From contig CAYGVI010000003.1 of the NCBI GenBank assembly GCA_964353335.1, positions 205,694 through 229,693 on the forward strand: a DNA stretch of 24,000 nucleotides, given 5' to 3'. Source of the DNA: an uncultured Methanosarcinales archaeon. GTDB taxonomy: Archaea > Nanobdellota > Nanobdellia > Woesearchaeales > ARS49. The position numbers were made by a program, and so were the translations under genes. The notes beneath the pieces are model-generated. The model saw nothing but the letters and a program-made list of their open reading frames with translations, made no database searches and was not told the DNA's origin. Below, one piece after another: positions 5,159 to 15,494 of the stretch; the stretch's first letter is position 1, and every line of letters starts with the position of its first letter.

Positions 5159-6496
5159 TTAGTGGTGCTTGTGCTTTTTTGCTTTTGTTTCTGGCGCTGG
5201 AGCTTCGTGCTCTTCAGCTGTTTCTTCTTCAGCAACCTCTTCTTCAGGCTCTTTCTCAGCAGGCTCTTCTGAAGCTTCTTTCTCTTCAGCAGCTTCTTCA
5301 GCAGGTGTTTCGTCCTCTGGATTTTCTGCCTCAGACTCAACTTCTTTCACAGCTTCTTCTTCCTCAGGTGTTTCACTAGGATTTTCTTCCTCTGATTTCA
5401 CTTCCTCTTCAGCCTCAGAAGCAGTTTCCTCTTCCTCGGTCATTGGCTTTGGCGCGGGAATAATATCAGGAAGTCCCATTTCTGCGTTTTCATCGACAGC
5501 TTCCTCATGCGTCTCGCCGGATGTAATCTCTGCAACGCGGTGCTCTATTTTTTCCTGCAATTCCGGCGGCACTCCGCCAGGAAACATCCCTTTTGAAGTG
5601 TATTCTGTCTTGCGGGGCTTTTCCTTTGCTGCCTCGCGCTTGATTTTTTCAACAGTGAGCTTGCCTTCTTCTTCCATTTCTGCTGTTTCTTCCTCTGTCG
5701 CTCCAGTTTCAATTCCTGCCTCGCCGAGAATCTTTTGCGCAAGTGCTTCTGCTGCTTCCTCAGGCGTCTTTGGCTCCTCTTCCTCCTTGTGCTTCTTGTG
5801 CTTGTGCTTTTTCTTTGGCTTTGGCGCCTCGCCATATGTCTGAAGCTCTCCGACTTTGCCGCCGATAACTTCAATTTCAGGCGCTAATTTTGGCAGTTCG
5901 TCAGTAAACACTTCAACTTTCGGAGTATTGTCATGCGCAGCGACAAAAATTGCCTGCTGTGTCTGTTCAATTGCAGTTTCTTTTTCCTCAATTGCCTTTT
6001 CAAGCGCTGCAACATTGTGGAACTTCTCTTTCAGCTTGTCAGGAGGAACATCAAAGTAGTCAAAGAATTTTGGAGTCAATTTTATCAGCCTGCTTCTTCC
6101 TTTTTTCTCCCTTGTAAGATAACCCATTTCCTCAAGCTCTTCCAGATGGCGATACGCCTTATTCGTCCTTATCTTAATCACATGGCTCTGCATTACTGGA
6201 GCCTTGTAAGCAACAACAGCGAGTGTTTCCATTATGCTCTTTGGAAGTTCAGGCGTTTTCACAACTTTTTTGACCATTGAAATGTATTTTTCCCTCACTG
6301 TGAGCTTGTAAGCCTCTCCTTCCTGCACAAGCATCAGCGAGCTTTGCTTGTCGTCAAGCTCCTGCTTTAGAATCTCAACCGCAGCCTTAACCGCGTCAAG
6401 GTTTTCCTCCTTGCATAATCTTCCGAGCTCTTCGAGTGTGAGCCTTTTGCCTGCGGAAAACAGCAGGGATTCAACCTGGTTTTTTAGTTCGCTCAT
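5159..6496 (-). CDS. scpB: Segregation and condensation protein B (ScpB) with a roughly 280-aa acidic low-complexity C-terminal extension
   Basis: The N-terminal ~165 aa match the double winged-helix ScpB pattern (VESLLFSAG, METLAVVAYKAPV..S.V..IR, GRSRL.KLT.KFFDYF). The remainder is Glu-rich with two Lys/His patches (KKKHKHKKHK and the C-terminal KAKKHKHH). Confidence 0.88.
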   Translation of the reverse strand: MSELKNQVESLLFSAGKRLTLEELGRLCKEENLDAVKAAVEILKQELDDKQSSLMLVQEGEAYKLTVREKYISMVKKVVKTPELPKSIMETLAVVAYKAPVMQSHVIKIRTNKAYRHLEELEEMGYLTREKKGRSRLIKLTPKFFDYFDVPPDKLKEKFHNVAALEKAIEEKETAIEQTQQAIFVAAHDNTPKVEVFTDELPKLAPEIEVIGGKVGELQTYGEAPKPKKKHKHKKHKEEEEPKTPEEAAEALAQKILGEAGIETGATEEETAEMEEEGKLTVEKIKREAAKEKPRKTEYTSKGMFPGGVPPELQEKIEHRVAEITSGETHEEAVDENAEMGLPDIIPAPKPMTEEEETASEAEEEVKSEEENPSETPEEEEAVKEVESEAENPEDETPAEEAAEEKEASEEPAEKEPEEEVAEEETAEEHEAPAPETKAKKHKHH

Positions 6497-7047
6497 ACAG
6501 GTAGGTAATTATCGCCTTCTTTTTTCAGCTTTTTGTCCTCAACAAGCTTTGCGAGGAACGGAATCAGCTTGCTCGGGTGCACTCCTATGAAATGTGACAT
6601 CTCGCCTGTTGTCTTGTGGCCTTTCTCCACGAGCGTGACAAGGAACCTTCTGAATATGTTTGTTGCGTTTGCGTCAAGCACCTGCTGTGTCATCTTGTTT
6701 GTCTTCACGATTGCATCTGCCTCGTGCAGTCTTGCCTGCAAATCATTAAGGAAGCCGTTTAATTTGTTCAGCGGTATTGAAAGCTCACCTGGCTCGACAA
6801 CCTCTACAGAGCTTGGCATGCTGTCAAAGCAGAAGTCAAGCAGTGCAGAGAGGTCCTTGAAGCGCATTTCAAGCTCTGCGTAAACTGAGAATATCGTTTC
6901 AGCAGGCTCAGCTTCTGCTATTTCTGCTTTTACAACAGTCTCTTCCTTCCTGAGCTTTTCCACATAGCTCTTCATCGTCTGCTCGATGTACTCCTTTGGC
7001 GCACCGAGCATCTCGATTATTACTCGTGCGAGAACCGTATCTCCCAT
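6493..7047 (-). CDS. Hypothetical protein (184 aa) with a probable C-terminal winged-helix domain, in the position upstream of scpB
   Basis: It overlaps the scpB start by 4 nt. The C-terminal FLVTLVEKGHKTTGEMSHFIGVHPSKLIPFLAKLVEDKKLKKEGDNY looks like a wHTH. I saw no recognisable ScpA N-terminal motif. Confidence 0.6.
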   Translation of the reverse strand: MGDTVLARVIIEMLGAPKEYIEQTMKSYVEKLRKEETVVKAEIAEAEPAETIFSVYAELEMRFKDLSALLDFCFDSMPSSVEVVEPGELSIPLNKLNGFLNDLQARLHEADAIVKTNKMTQQVLDANATNIFRRFLVTLVEKGHKTTGEMSHFIGVHPSKLIPFLAKLVEDKKLKKEGDNYLPV

Positions 7048-7070: not shown

Positions 7071-7079
7071 TATTTATAA
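7071..7079 (-). promoter_or_regulatory. TATA box (ttataaata on the minus strand) 24 nt upstream of the start at 7047
   Basis: The spacing fits the leaderless pattern seen elsewhere in the window. The element overlaps the stop codon of the upstream gene. Confidence 0.5.
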
Positions 7080-7553
7080 CTTTTGCTCATTAAGTTTTTG
7101 CCCAAGCGCAGATTCCAGGTTGCAAACGATGTACGGCTTGTGCTCTTCAAATGCCAAGTCATACGCTTCCTTTGCTGCCCTGTGGTTTCCAATGTCCAAT
7201 GACCAGAGGTATGCATTCTTTGCTGTCTGCTGCGGCTCAAGTGCGTTTTTCGCGCTCAGCACCCAGAATACAGGCATGGCAAGCCTGTGAGTCTCAGGCG
7301 TGTCAGGAAGCCCTGCTGAAACAAGGCATTCTGAAAGCGCCTTGATGACATCAGGGTTTCCTTTCACAGACCCGTTTCCAATTGTGCCTGCAGTTGTGCT
7401 GTAGTCCAGGTTTGGCACCTGCTGATAAAGCAAGCCCCAAATCTGTTGAGCCTGGGCTTCAACTGGCTCGCCTTTTGCGCGCCTGCTCAAAGCCTCACTG
7501 ACAACAGTTTCTATAGAAGCAGCCTCTGGTCTTGCGGCTGTAGTTGTCTCCAT
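7074..7553 (-). CDS. Hypothetical protein (159 aa)
   Basis: An uninterrupted ORF with composition similar to its neighbours. No recognisable motif. Confidence 0.45.
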   Translation of the reverse strand: METTTAARPEAASIETVVSEALSRRAKGEPVEAQAQQIWGLLYQQVPNLDYSTTAGTIGNGSVKGNPDVIKALSECLVSAGLPDTPETHRLAMPVFWVLSAKNALEPQQTAKNAYLWSLDIGNHRAAKEAYDLAFEEHKPYIVCNLESALGQKLNEQKL

Positions 7554-7673
7554 CTCAGAAGTTCCTTACGGATACCCTCAAGTATTAAAGCATTATTGTG
7601 ATGCAAAATAGGTTTTGTTACCATTCCGCAATACTCATAAAAGTTTATGAAGGCGTATTGAGAGCATCACCAT

Positions 7674-8288
7674 TTGGGTGTGGGTACAATGTTCGGATTT
7701 GGTAAAAAGAAACAACCATCGCTTCCTGAACTGCCACCGCCTCCTTCTCCGCCTGCATTCCCCGCGCCTGAGGGAGACATTCCCAGCATAAGGCCTTCTG
7801 AGGAAATGCTGGCTGCTCCGTCATTTGAGCCGTCGGAAGAACAGCCAATTGAGCTTCCTGAAGCTCCTGCTCCTGAAATGCCTGAGTTCCCTGAACCAGG
7901 TCAACTGCAGCAGGAAATGCCTGCTGAAATGGAAGAGCTTCCAAAATTTGCAAAGTTTGAACCTGACACAGGCCATGTTGAGCCGCTTGTTCCCGAAGAG
8001 CAGCCAATGGAAATCCCAGAGGAAGCGCCTTCATATGAAGCTCCTGAGCGTGAAACAATTCGCAGGCCAATCGGTCCTGCGTTTATCGCTGTCGACGAAT
8101 ACCGCAGCATAATGGACCATTCGGACAGGGTGCGCTCAAAGCTGGCAGAGGCAGAGGAATTCGTGCACCGCCTTTCAGAAATCAAGGCAGATGAGGAAAA
8201 GGCGTTTGACAAGTGGCGCTCCCAGCTCGAGGATATTGAGCGAAAGCTCGGACAGATTGATAGGGTTATTGCAAAGGCTAAAAGGTGA
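7674..8288 (+). CDS. Pro/Glu-rich protein with a C-terminal coiled-coil module (first of three coupled genes)
   Basis: The TTG at 7674 lies 24 nt after a tttatga element. An in-frame ATG at 7689 would give MFGFGKKK. About 115 aa of PE-rich spacer precede FIAVDEYRSIMD...VRSKL...EIK...W...DIERKL, which is paralogous to the next ORF. Confidence 0.6.
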   Translation: MGVGTMFGFGKKKQPSLPELPPPPSPPAFPAPEGDIPSIRPSEEMLAAPSFEPSEEQPIELPEAPAPEMPEFPEPGQLQQEMPAEMEELPKFAKFEPDTGHVEPLVPEEQPMEIPEEAPSYEAPERETIRRPIGPAFIAVDEYRSIMDHSDRVRSKLAEAEEFVHRLSEIKADEEKAFDKWRSQLEDIERKLGQIDRVIAKAKR

Positions 8289-8524
8289 TTATGATGGATG
8301 ATCAAAGGGCACCGGTGTTTGTAAAAGTGGATGAGTACAAGTCAATTCTTGACCTTCTTGATACAGTAAGGCAGCGCCTTTCACAGGCAAAGGAATTGCT
8401 TGCACGGGTCAATGAGCTAAAACAGCAGGAAGACCAGCAGATTGAATCCTGGGCTCGCGACATTGATGATGTCGAGGAAAGGCTTTCATCTATTTCCAAA
8501 TCACTTCTGGAACCTCAGGCATGA
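8285..8524 (+). CDS. Small coiled-coil protein (second of three), paralogous to the C-terminus of 7674-8288
   Basis: VFVKVDEYKSILD...VRQRL...ELK...W...DVEERL. The GTG at 8285 overlaps the upstream stop. Alternative ATGs at 8291 and 8294 follow an aggtga SD-like site. Confidence 0.6.
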   Translation: MIMMDDQRAPVFVKVDEYKSILDLLDTVRQRLSQAKELLARVNELKQQEDQQIESWARDIDDVEERLSSISKSLLEPQA

Positions 8525-8901
8525 AAAAAACCGAGCAGGACTTGCTTTTCGTGGAACTTAAGGAGCCTTCTGCTACTCGCCGCGACGTTCTTATGTCCAC
8601 AAAGGATGTTCTTGACATCCTGAAGCGGTATGAAGAATACAGGGCTGTGTCTGCAGAGAAAATGAGAGTCCTTGGGGAGCTTAAGCAGGTTGTTGACACG
8701 CTCCAGTCCCTTAACAGGAGGATTAGGAACAAGATGCCAAAGACGCCTGCTGCACAATCTCAAATTTACGAAATAGAGCGGGAAAAAGAGGAAAAATTCA
8801 TCACGGGCTCGCGGCCGTTACTGGCGCGGCCCAAATCAAAATTAGACATTCTCCAGGAAGAACTCGAGAAGATAGAGAGCAGATTAGGGGCTTTGGAGTA
8901 A
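8521..8901 (+). CDS. Coiled-coil protein (third of three), distantly similar to the previous two
   Basis: An ATGA overlap joins it to the upstream gene. LFVELKE...VLGELKQ...LEKIESRLGAL echoes the same motif order with a longer first helix. Confidence 0.55.
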   Translation: MKKTEQDLLFVELKEPSATRRDVLMSTKDVLDILKRYEEYRAVSAEKMRVLGELKQVVDTLQSLNRRIRNKMPKTPAAQSQIYEIEREKEEKFITGSRPLLARPKSKLDILQEELEKIESRLGALE

Positions 8902-8938: not shown

Positions 8939-9068
8939 GCGCCGGTGCCGGAGTGGCCAAACGGGACAGCCTCAAGCAGCGGTCAGCGGAGCTGACAAGC
9001 TCTCTTCGCTGATGCTCGAGAGAGCTGTTGGCTTAGTGCCTACGCAGGTTCAAATCCTGTCCGGCGCA
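8939..9068 (+). tRNA. tRNA-Leu(CAA) with a 46-nt intron at the canonical 37/38 position (about 8977-9022)
   Basis: Hand-folded. Acceptor GCGCCGG/CCGGCGC with discriminator A. Class II D arm (CCG GAGTGGCCAAA CGG). Anticodon stem ACAGC/GCTGT with loop CT-CAA-G|intron|A. Long variable arm TGGCTTAGTGCCTAC. T arm GCAGG TTCAAAT CCTGT. Confidence 0.85.
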
Positions 9069-14447: not shown

Positions 14448-15494
14448 GTGGGGCGCTATATCGTCGATGAAAGGGTAAAGTTTCCGAAAGGTCTCCAAAG
14501 AAAGCTTCTTGAAAGCATAAAAGACGAGCATAATTTAACTTGGAAAGAATTTGCGGCAAGACTGGGAATTTCTGAAGGAATGCTTAGCATTGATTGGAGG
14601 CTTGAGCGGTGCACTCTTCCAAAATCGCGGATGAAACTGCTTGCTAAAATGAGTGAGAAACCTGCTGTTCGAAGAATAATTGATATGGGAAAAATTCTGC
14701 CACGCTGCTGGGGGCAAACGAAAGGCGCGATAAAAGCTTGCAAGACAATGAATATTGATCGCGTACTCACCATCACCCAAGGGATTGAGAAAACCCCCTC
14801 ATTTGCTGAATTGGTAGGCATCATTTTAGGCGATGGCCACCTTCACGAAAAGGGAATGGAAATAACTCTGAACATCTATAAAGAGGTGGGTTATGCAGCA
14901 CACGTAGCAGAACTCATCAAGACTTTATTTGGCAAAGAACCTAGAATTAGACACACACATTCAACCATACGCGTCATCTTGAATTCAAAACTGGTGGTGA
15001 AAGCTCTGAAAGAAATAGGATTGAAAACAGGCAGAAAAGGAGATCATACACGCATCCCAGAACTGTTTTGGACGGATAAAACTCTCCTCAGCCGGTGCGT
15101 ACGCGGATTAATCGACACAGACGGAGGAATCCATAAAAAAGAGCGGTTTGGAAAACGGCACATTATTGAATTCAAGAATATGTCACAGCCATTGCTTGAC
15201 GACGTTAGAAACGCGCTTGCCCTGCTCGGTTTTCAGGTCTCGCTTGGCGGACCCCATGCAATTAGGGTGCAGCATCAGAGTGAGATTAAAAAATACCTAC
15301 TCAACATAGGCACTTCAAACGGCAAAAATACCGAAATAATTGGTGAAATTTTCGCGCCAGTAGTCCAGCGGCAGGATACGAGCTTCCCAAGACCTCAAAA
15401 AAAGGTCGGTAAGAGCTTGGGACCCGGGTTCAAATCCCGGCTGGCGCATCCGCTAATTCAAGATAAAAAAATAGAACAAAATCATTCTTTTTAG
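14448..15494 (+). CDS. HTH plus double-motif LAGLIDADG endonuclease-like protein; the ORF reads through the tRNA-Gly gene
   Basis: The N-terminal HTH is LTWKEFAARLGISEGMLS. The two LAGLIDADG motifs are LVGIILGDGHL and VRGLIDTDGGI. The recognisable domain ends near 15350. The last ~47 codons are the translation of the tRNA gene and its trailer, because no stop codon intervenes. Confidence 0.75.
   Translation: MGRYIVDERVKFPKGLQRKLLESIKDEHNLTWKEFAARLGISEGMLSIDWRLERCTLPKSRMKLLAKMSEKPAVRRIIDMGKILPRCWGQTKGAIKACKTMNIDRVLTITQGIEKTPSFAELVGIILGDGHLHEKGMEITLNIYKEVGYAAHVAELIKTLFGKEPRIRHTHSTIRVILNSKLVVKALKEIGLKTGRKGDHTRIPELFWTDKTLLSRCVRGLIDTDGGIHKKERFGKRHIIEFKNMSQPLLDDVRNALALLGFQVSLGGPHAIRVQHQSEIKKYLLNIGTSNGKNTEIIGEIFAPVVQRQDTSFPRPQKKVGKSLGPGFKSRLAHPLIQDKKIEQNHSF
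15324..15330 (+). promoter_or_regulatory. TATA-like box for tRNA-Gly, located inside the LAGLIDADG ORF
   Basis: aaaaata ends 24 nt upstream of tRNA position 1. Confidence 0.4.
15354..15448 (+). tRNA. tRNA-Gly(CCC) with a 24-nt intron at 37/38 (about 15390-15413)
   Basis: Hand-folded. Acceptor GCGCCAG/CTGGCGC with discriminator A. D arm GTCC AGCGGCA GGAT. Anticodon stem CGAGC/GCTTG (one G-U pair) with loop TT-CCC-A|intron|A. T arm CCGGG TTCAAAT CCCGG. The intron contains the hairpin GACCT-caaaaaa-AGGTC. Confidence 0.8.

Follow-up and report, generated by a model that had tools for sequence, protein, structure and literature searches.

Three consecutive small genes, here called g1, g2 and g3 (together, the triad), were analysed in a 24,000-nucleotide (nt) stretch of archaeal DNA, hereafter the window, which spans positions 205,694 to 229,693 of contig CAYGVI010000003.1 (assembly GCA_964353335.1). 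The contig was deposited under the name of an uncultured Methanosarcinales archaeon, and the window is a housekeeping region of Woesearchaeota (a DPANN archaeon; Nanoarchaeia in GTDB). The genes are conserved and tightly packed, and their module is an undescribed protein family. From features of the sequence, we interpret the triad as an operon whose products would assemble into a hetero-oligomeric complex of coiled coils. A parallel three-stranded 1:1:1 bundle is its most likely form, and g1 would tether it to the inner face of the cytoplasmic membrane; the probability of this reading is put at roughly 0.45. A tethered coiled-coil scaffold is in itself a known kind of design. The features of the triad, in window coordinates, are as follows.

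7640..7651, plus strand: TATA-like box, A+T-rich AAAGTTTATGAA, about 40-50 nt 5' of the g1 ATG (sequence reading).
7689..8288, plus strand: g1, 199 amino acids (aa), consisting, from the N- to the C-terminus, of a tip, an LPPPP motif, a spacer rich in Pro and Glu, and a coiled-coil module (open reading frame, start from homologues).
7689..7712, plus strand: g1 N-terminal tip MFGFGKKK, hydrophobic and polybasic, a putative peripheral membrane anchor.
7713..8069, plus strand: Pro/Glu-rich spacer of g1 (aa 9-127), poorly conserved, 119 aa with 26% Pro and 22% Glu.
7722..7754, plus strand: polyproline motif LPELPPPPSPP, with L16, P17-P20 and P22 near-invariant in g1 alignment A2.
7770-7796, plus strand: second short motif EGDIPSIRP, with I35 conserved in the same alignment.
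8070..8285, plus strand: g1 C-terminal module (aa 128-199), comprising a PAFIAV strand-like segment, DEY, and an eight-heptad helix ending in WRSQLEDIERKLGQIDRVIAKAKR.
8284..8289, plus strand: Shine-Dalgarno-like site GGTGAT within the end of g1, 1-4 nt 5' of both candidate g2 ATGs (sequence reading).
8294..8524, plus strand: g2, 76 aa from ATG 8294 (77 aa from ATG 8291; 79 aa from GTG 8285).
8521..8901, plus strand: g3, 126 aa, basic; a strand-like segment (LLFVELK) is followed by a long helix (16-71), which a variable linker (72-101) separates from an invariant helix at the C-terminus.
8824..8898, plus strand: g3 C-terminal motif ARPKSKLDILQEELEKIESRLGALE, ending R-LGALE, an exact R-hxxhE trimerization motif, with 16 invariant columns.

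A preliminary description of the window had drawn attention to three consecutive plus-strand open reading frames (ORFs; 7674-8288, 8285-8524 and 8521-8901), joined by two 4-nt overlaps that were taken to fix the stoichiometry of their products. The ORF list and a reading of the sequence returned the same three ORFs, with the peptides quoted for them. The start assigned to g1, TTG 7674, is probably to be given up in favour of ATG 7689, the most likely start because the homologues begin with MFGF or MGLF. As to the overlaps, the ATGA shared by g2 and g3 (8521-8524) was found as described, and in 20 of 26 other loci this junction ranges from a 4-nt overlap to direct abutment. The GTGA shared by g1 and g2 presupposes a start at GTG 8285 which the homologues do not support. 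These are 74-77 aa long and open with MDDQ in the alignment, so that g2 likely starts at ATG 8291 or 8294, 2-5 nt past the g1 stop codon (8286-8288), and the overlap with g1 is probably not real; in other loci, too, the g2 start lies a few nt past the g1 stop. A stoichiometry fixed by 4-nt overlaps therefore holds for the g2/g3 junction and not for the g1/g2 junction. Sites of the GGTGAT type are complementary to the 3' end of archaeal 16S rRNA, and AAAGTTTATGAA is a possible archaeal promoter of the operon.

In a database clustered at 90%, there are 45 close homologues of g1, 51 of g2 and 46 of g3. When 1.84 billion representatives (50% identity clusters) were searched exhaustively in HMMER with a profile of g1+g2, 3,220 were recovered at E<=1e-3; 1,423 of these reached E<=1e-10, and 28 reached E<=1e-30. 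All the members with informative organism names belong to Woesearchaeota, Nanoarchaeia or Nanoarchaeota, the genome scan having relied on a single peptide pattern. Nine contigs of GTDB species-representative MAGs titled 'uncultured Methanosarcinales' (loci L008, L010, L011, L013, L015-L017, L020 and L022) carry the synteny of Woesearchaeota type (GyrA, ScpB, triad, RNase J, PCNA), and their titles are probably a mislabel that originated in automated binning. The three genes are real genes under purifying selection: where the synonymous substitution rate (dS) was unsaturated, the ratio of nonsynonymous to synonymous rates (dN/dS) was 0.09-0.19 overall, with 0.18-0.19 for g1 and 0.09-0.14 for g2.

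Loci for comparison were gathered by contig look-ups and by a scan of GTDB species genomes with alignment A6. The order g1-g2-g3 is kept in about 28 of the 32 other loci, divergent ones included, with sizes of ~150-270, 74-79 and 111-135 aa (typically ~185, 75 and 120 aa); the preliminary description had allowed that the ORFs might not recur as a triad in any related genome, or might fall into a characterized family, and neither was found. Two loci (L006 and L032) stop at a contig edge. In L009 (3123-3984) and L030 (3044-4100) a g3 or g3-like gene directly follows g1 and g2 is missing, with a gap of 47 nt in L009. Finally, L023 (Woesearchaeota RIFOXYD1_FULL_32_9, 5970-6300) shows frame-broken g1/g2 remnants next to tRNA-Leu, namely a g1 module devoid of its N-terminal part and a truncated g2 (MPVFVKIGEYKDIMDIL...*), which are due either to pseudogenization or to an assembly error.

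The claim that the module cannot be assigned to a known family was confirmed. Searches of g1, g2 and g3 against Pfam, NCBIfam, PADLOC and PHROGs gave nothing at threshold, and 47 diverse module sequences and 33 g3 sequences were run against Pfam as well. In all of these there was no more than sub-threshold coiled-coil noise, with matches to RIN1 (24 bits vs a cutoff of 27), Med9, DUF948, ERM_helical, MtrG, FlaC and the like. The precomputed Pfam fields are empty for all the homologues and for the triad genes at every locus, while the same tables give PF27325 for a neighbouring gene. A sequence search of the PDB with three profiles reached a best E-value of 0.077, with unrelated coiled coils, and met CdvA at E 3.7. 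Foldseek comparison of the AlphaFold2 (AF2) models of g2 and g3 with the PDB produced zero matches, which is to be expected because the models are isolated helices. A search of the literature brought up no paper on the triad family or MJ0538, nor any on division proteins of coiled-coil type in Woesearchaeota.

Candidate assignments were considered and rejected. As regards ESCRT-III/PspA/Vipp1, neither Snf7 nor PspA_IM30 was matched by g1-g3 (E<=10), nor did either occur among the 25 most frequent families for the 47 module and 33 g3 sequences, and the AF2 models show no helical-hairpin core, g2 being a single helix and the helices of g3 being unpacked. Only the 'MGLF..' tip of g1 resembles the start of helix alpha0 of PspA/Vipp1. 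Another candidate, MtrG, is the only recurrent sequence echo: nine of the 47 module sequences match the first ~32 positions of the profile, with a best E-value of 2e-5, over the segment PxFVxVD(D/E)Y and the start of the helix. This partial similarity explains why one homologue was auto-annotated as MtrG by the Joint Genome Institute (JGI). Membership was rejected on the grounds that the similarity covers ~30 residues only and that the g1-like consensus of the window scores E 0.16, 12 bits vs a cutoff of 27. MtrG ends in a transmembrane (TM) helix; the triad proteins have no hydrophobic C-terminus and no mtr neighbours, which further excludes this assignment.

The relationship between g1 and g2 proved to be stronger than had been proposed. 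The gapless alignment of the g1 C-terminus with g2, first put at ~30% identity, amounts in BLASTP to 39% identity and 68% positives between the C-terminal 72 aa of g1 and g2, over 62 ungapped aa (E 3e-17), and profile-profile comparison (hhalign) aligns 68 columns with 98.9% probability and E 3.8e-17. The C-terminal module of g1 and g2 are paralogues.

The preliminary description had also counted g3 as a third paralogue. It does possess a similar layout, with the three sequence blocks in the same order and 11 extra residues between LFV and ELKQ, but this extension of the paralogy was rejected because no significant collinear alignment could be obtained. BLASTP of g3 against the module gave E-values of 0.004-0.37 with non-collinear alignments, and hhalign gave probabilities of 1.6% (alignment A1 vs A3) and 3.2% (A2 vs A3). 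A g3 profile broadened with the divergent loci aligned in its last 20 columns only (E 0.0015, 16.8%), and its global alignment failed (E 0.28). Overall, the hhalign matches of g3 to the module span 9-20 columns, the last ~20 residues of g3 giving E 0.0015-0.014 with probabilities of 3-17%. A common origin of the C-terminal helix of g3 and of the g1/g2 module is nonetheless plausible, because the divergent g3-like protein of L030 ends in ELEDIQRKLKEM, the same words as in the g1-family motif QLEDIQRKL.

The protein g1 is built of a tip, a flexible linker and a coiled coil, and this architecture, which had been put forward with a membrane- or partner-binding role for the tip, holds across the family. 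The basic N-terminus MFGFGKKK and the Pro/Glu-rich linker of the window protein are both present as described. The tip has the consensus M-[GA]-[LIF]-[FL]-x-[FL]-[FL]-KKKK, which was found in 152 of 176 full-length members of the g1 family, and carries a net charge of +3 over the first 14 aa. Neither a TM segment nor a signal peptide was seen in it, the longest apolar run being <=12 residues. Its helical hydrophobic moment is just moderate (family median 0.38; 0.15 in the window protein), for which reason the wording 'amphipathic helix' was dropped in favour of 'hydrophobic, polybasic tip'. A polyproline motif of the form (D/E)LPPPPxPP follows in 160 of the 176 members, at a median of 16 residues past the initiator Met and often with the motif GDIPxI next to it; tip and polyproline motif occur in that order in 142 of the 176. 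The spacer is variable in length and sequence across the family, with a median of 111 aa (interquartile range 99-123) and fractions of 0.23 Pro, 0.21 acidic and 0.08 basic residues.

The module of the g1 family opens with a near-invariant P-x-F-V-x-V-D-D-Y segment. In the diverse alignment A5 (47 sequences) its a/d hydrophobic periodicity is unbroken across 57 columns, which include a conserved polar layer, L-K(a)-x-x-E(d), and a Trp conserved at a d position in 44 of 47 sequences. Its C-terminal end has the form K(g)-L(a)-x-x-V(d)-D(e), in the register K59(g), L60(a), V63(d), D64(e); in g1, the corresponding K-LGQID is a relaxed trimerization motif. The acidic protein g2 corresponds to the module without tip or spacer, with APVFVKVDEY at its N-terminus followed by a single long helix and by a conserved C-terminal tail, SLLEPQ. 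Its mean column identity is 78% across the 51 close homologues, and the single-chain AF2 model predicts one extended helix (residues 15-75 in the 79-aa numbering; predicted local distance difference test (pLDDT) 88). For g3, the single-chain model predicts helices at 16-71 and 107-125, not packed together, with disorder at 91-99 (pLDDT 76; predicted template modelling score 0.34). The alignment of 46 g3 homologues contains 32 invariant columns, 16 of which fall within the last 25 residues, giving the invariant family tail ARPKSKLDxLQEELxKIExRLGxLE. The median isoelectric points of the families are 4.6 for g2, 9.3 for g3 and 6.8 for the g1 module, and helix A of g3 has a net charge of +5.

A known trimerization motif, R(g)-h(a)-x-x-h(d)-E(e), directs coiled coils into a parallel, three-stranded form (PMC3653964). 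In its strict form, R-hxxhE, it stands at the C-terminus of g3 in 40 of 46 homologues. The relaxed form, [RK]hxxh[ED], is found at the equivalent position in all 45 g1 homologues (K-LxxID), in 29 of 51 g2 homologues (R-LSS[IV]D) and in 129 of 143 family representatives, compared with 4-7% of shuffled tails, and the heptad register g-a-x-x-d-e was confirmed on alignment A5. Known trimers of this type (coronin-1, ccbeta, engineered GCN4, cortexillin variants) have an exact counterpart in R-LGALE of g3, and counterparts in the same register in K-LxxID of g1 and R-LSS(I/V)D of g2. They differ in being homotrimers, whereas the motifs of the triad would come from three different chains, one from each, and those of g1 and g2 depart conservatively from the strict form (K in place of R, D in place of E).

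Several lines of evidence argue for a hetero-oligomer rather than for independent proteins: the overlapping or abutting junctions and the persistence of the triad; the identity of g2 as the bare oligomerization module of g1; the complementary charges, with g2 acidic, helix A of g3 strongly basic (+5) and the g1 module near neutral; and the C-terminal motif that g1, g2 and g3 have in common at equivalent positions. Because an R-hxxhE-type motif is present in all three, a parallel 1:1:1 three-stranded stalk is proposed. In this model, the tip of g1 (MFGFGKKK; consensus MGLFxFLKKKK) would bind the membrane peripherally, and the LPPPP/GDIP region with the ~110-aa acidic Pro/Glu-rich spacer would act as an extended, flexible, self-repelling tether. 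This part of the model is suggested by the likeness of the tip to the membrane-binding peptide of M. smithii SepF and by a spacer composition close to that of the disordered linker of PopZ, both compared below. The eight-heptad helix of g1 would pair both with g2, its acidic paralogue that lacks the anchor, and with the basic g3; xFVxV(D/E)(D/E)Y would nucleate the pairing, and the (R/K)-h-x-x-h-(E/D) layer at the C-terminus would lock it. The resulting stalk may serve as a scaffold or spacer that holds or organizes a partner near the membrane. Such a function would resemble, by analogy, that of SepF or ZipA (as a tether) or that of PopZ or DivIVA (as a hub), with homology to none of them. Involvement in cell division or in the anchoring of chromosomes is a guess, prompted by these analogies and by the replication and chromosome genes of the neighbourhood; for the cell division or envelope remodelling suggested in the preliminary description, no direct support emerged. 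The wider proposition, that the triad is a cytoskeletal or scaffold system throughout one archaeal lineage, with a membrane-tethered heterotrimeric stalk organizing division or chromosome anchoring in Woesearchaeota, is tentative and appears somewhat unlikely.

It should be noted that several observations weigh against the proposed complex. Motifs, gene packing and charge are the sole basis on which we infer that the complex forms and in what stoichiometry. The homology of g3 to the g1/g2 module is not significant by BLASTP or hhalign, and the g2 of the window itself has Ser where the acidic residue of the C-terminal motif stands. The absence of g2 from L009 and L030, along with the frame-broken remnants that are all that L023 retains, implies that a strict 1:1:1 complex cannot be both universal and essential. 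With its hydrophobic moment of 0.38 (median) or 0.15 (window), the g1 tip is not a textbook amphipathic helix, and it could be a partner-binding peptide instead of a membrane anchor. Finally, the gene context points to no function beyond that of housekeeping neighbours.

Among the alternatives, the one that survives best is that g1 is a PopZ-like self-assembling hub, the helix of which would homo-oligomerize into a network or condensate whose material state is tuned by the intrinsically disordered region (IDR); the N-terminal motifs would recruit clients or the membrane, and g2 and g3 would be caps or modulators and not obligate trimer subunits. Like g1, PopZ is a protein of ~180-200 aa in which a short conserved region at the N-terminus precedes an acidic Pro-rich spacer and, at the C-terminus, a helical oligomerization domain of ~70 aa. 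Besides this tripartite architecture, the IDR of PopZ (78 aa; PMC9512792) has nearly the same composition as the g1 spacer (Pro 0.23 and acidic residues 0.29 in PopZ vs 0.23 and 0.21 in g1), although the likeness is one of analogy only. It would also be in keeping with a hub that g2 is exactly the oligomerization module alone, that g2 is dispensable in some genomes, and that the operon adjoins ScpB and chromosome-maintenance genes at most loci. However, there is no detectable sequence similarity to PopZ, and no match to the PopZ family in any of the Pfam scans; PopZ is a protein of Caulobacter and other Alphaproteobacteria, whereas the triad belongs to an archaeon. PopZ has an acidic client-binding N-helix and three short helices, in contrast to the hydrophobic polybasic tip and the one continuous eight-heptad helix of g1, which moreover has two dedicated partner genes. 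The tight gene packing and the charge complementarity favour a stoichiometric hetero-complex, and neither L030 nor L033 retains the ScpB neighbourhood. A hub of this type seems unlikely.

A second alternative, more doubtful than the hub, is that the triad is an accessory of the FtsZ divisome, i.e. a Woesearchaeota-specific partner of FtsZ or SepF comparable to ZapA, ZapB or EzrA, or a second membrane anchor, in which the N-terminal motifs of g1 or the xFVxVDDY segment would bind division proteins by beta-augmentation. The GDIPxI motif of g1 is similar to DIPxFL of bacteria. The idea that it mimics the C-terminal peptide of FtsZ was rejected, since it does not fit the consensus of archaeal FtsZ tails, which are centred on GID (PMC8178401). 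In favour of this alternative, a tip-like motif followed by a linker and an interaction domain is the layout of FtsZ tethers (PMC8187382, PMC8178401), few components of the archaeal divisome are known, and Woesearchaeota express FtsZ (PMC11606122). By architecture, the closest analogues of g1 are SepF and PopZ; by structural motif, the R-hxxhE trimers come closest. SepF consists of a short membrane-binding peptide at its N-terminus, a flexible linker and an interaction domain, an order in which the putative anchor of g1 would correspond to the peptide. In M. smithii, the SepF tip, MGFTDALKRSLGF, is an experimentally membrane-binding peptide (PMC8178401) and resembles MGLFxFLKKKK. However, SepF binds the C-terminal peptide of FtsZ through a core that is an alpha/beta dimer, whereas g1 ends in a single coiled-coil helix of heptad type and has a far longer, Pro/Glu-rich linker. 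No SepF profile was matched in Pfam or NCBIfam, and none of ZapA, ZapB and DivIVA was listed in the Pfam scans of the triad proteins or of the module and g3 sets. ZapB, DivIVA/GpsB and FtsB/FtsL are similar to the triad proteins in being short adaptors with one dominant heptad helix, encoded in conserved housekeeping regions; they differ in that no profile similarity links them to the triad, which has neither the TM segments of FtsB and FtsL nor an N-terminal lipid-binding domain of DivIVA type. In addition, FtsZ, SepF, MinD and CdpB are adjacent to the triad at none of the loci examined.

Still less probable is that g1, g2 and g3 act independently or with other partners, their adjacency reflecting conserved genome order and their shared features being generic to coiled coils. 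At most loci the wider order is GyrA, ScpB, MJ0538-family gene, triad, (tRNA-Leu), RNase J, PCNA, and this arrangement of ~15 kb is general synteny among related genomes; adjacency of the three genes alone is therefore weak evidence, and a relationship of g3 to g1 and g2 could not be proved. On the other hand, the triad stays together where its flanks change. The synteny breaks in the divergent loci L033, where the upstream neighbour is ornithine carbamoyltransferase, and L030, where the neighbours are TFE and AlaRS, while both L021 and L028 contain an insertion of unrelated genes, 3-4 kb in length. The triad moves as a unit, and adjacency to ScpB is dispensable. Independence is also difficult to reconcile with the overlapping or abutting junctions, with the opposite charges of g2 and g3, and with a C-terminal motif that is the same in all three at equivalent positions and lies far above the level of the shuffles. 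As for spurious ORFs or low-complexity coiled-coil noise, which the compositional bias of the g1 linker and the antisense ORFs of 134-141 aa overlapping the triad region might have suggested, this reading is already refuted by the thousands of homologues with position-specific conservation (invariant W, K and Y; the 32 invariant columns of g3), by dN/dS well below 1 and by the conserved gene order.

The window contains GyrA, a DNA-alkylation repair enzyme and ScpB, and RNase J, PCNA and Hef follow. Of the neighbours that had been named for the triad, ScpB, RNase J and tRNA-Leu were all confirmed, as was PCNA. The tRNA gene, which was missed by ARAGORN in its default mode and by Rfam (E<=0.1), is as follows.

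8939-9068, plus strand: tRNA-Leu(CAA), the anticodon loop of which is interrupted by a 46-nt intron (ARAGORN, intron option only).

Taken together, the flanking genes of the loci encode GyrA, ScpB, the MJ0538-family protein, RNase J, PCNA, Hef, radical SAM, ornithine carbamoyltransferase, TFE, AlaRS and an Obg-like GTPase. Assigning a function to the triad through guilt by association was tried and rejected, because the flanks in the window and in the divergent loci show no consistent functional partner.

Some features of these neighbours may be recorded here. On the minus strand, the ScpB gene (5159-6496) is unusually long, with 445 aa, of which residues 7-150 form the ScpB domain; it is followed by a low-complexity tail of ~290 aa, rich in Glu, Lys and Pro, with runs of the type KKHKHKKHK. 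The start of the ScpB gene is overlapped by 4 nt by a 184-aa gene (6493-7047, minus strand) that had no match in the local copy of Pfam, and the orthologues of which carry the precomputed assignment PF27325 'MJ0538'. With a single exception, the loci that hold ScpB have the two genes in one operon. No ScpA/kleisin was seen in the window, and the MJ0538-family protein could be a kleisin substitute or a partner of ScpB. Between this gene and g1 lies an ORF of 159 aa (7074-7553, minus strand) with no family match, detected only in the relatives L002 and L007; because of it, the divergent promoter region is not directly common to the MJ0538-family gene and g1 in this genome. ORFs resembling homing endonucleases of the LAGLIDADG type are present in the window (14448-15494, plus strand), and one stands at a different position, directly 3' of the triad, in L028 (6973-7647).

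Few archaea are as abundant, or as poorly understood, as the Woesearchaeota, and, to our knowledge, none of their cell-organizing proteins has been studied beyond the homologues of FtsZ and SepF. The triad is conserved across the lineage, lies in a core region of replication and chromosome genes, and is invisible to every annotation library tried. The system is tractable in vitro, yet the organisms are uncultivated, and its function we can only infer. Even if it proved to be a minor structural adaptor, the triad would still define a new family with which thousands of 'hypothetical proteins' can be annotated. If it is a membrane-tethered scaffold, it would be a new component of archaeal cell biology, and a compact, tractable system (199, 76 and 126 aa) in which heteromeric coiled coils, Pro/Glu spacers and membrane tips could be studied as organizers. 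Should the wider proposition of a lineage-wide organizing stalk be true, the three dedicated small proteins would represent an independent archaeal counterpart of the organizers of PopZ, DivIVA or SepF type. There is a moderate chance that the triad marks a new cell-organizing system of DPANN archaea.

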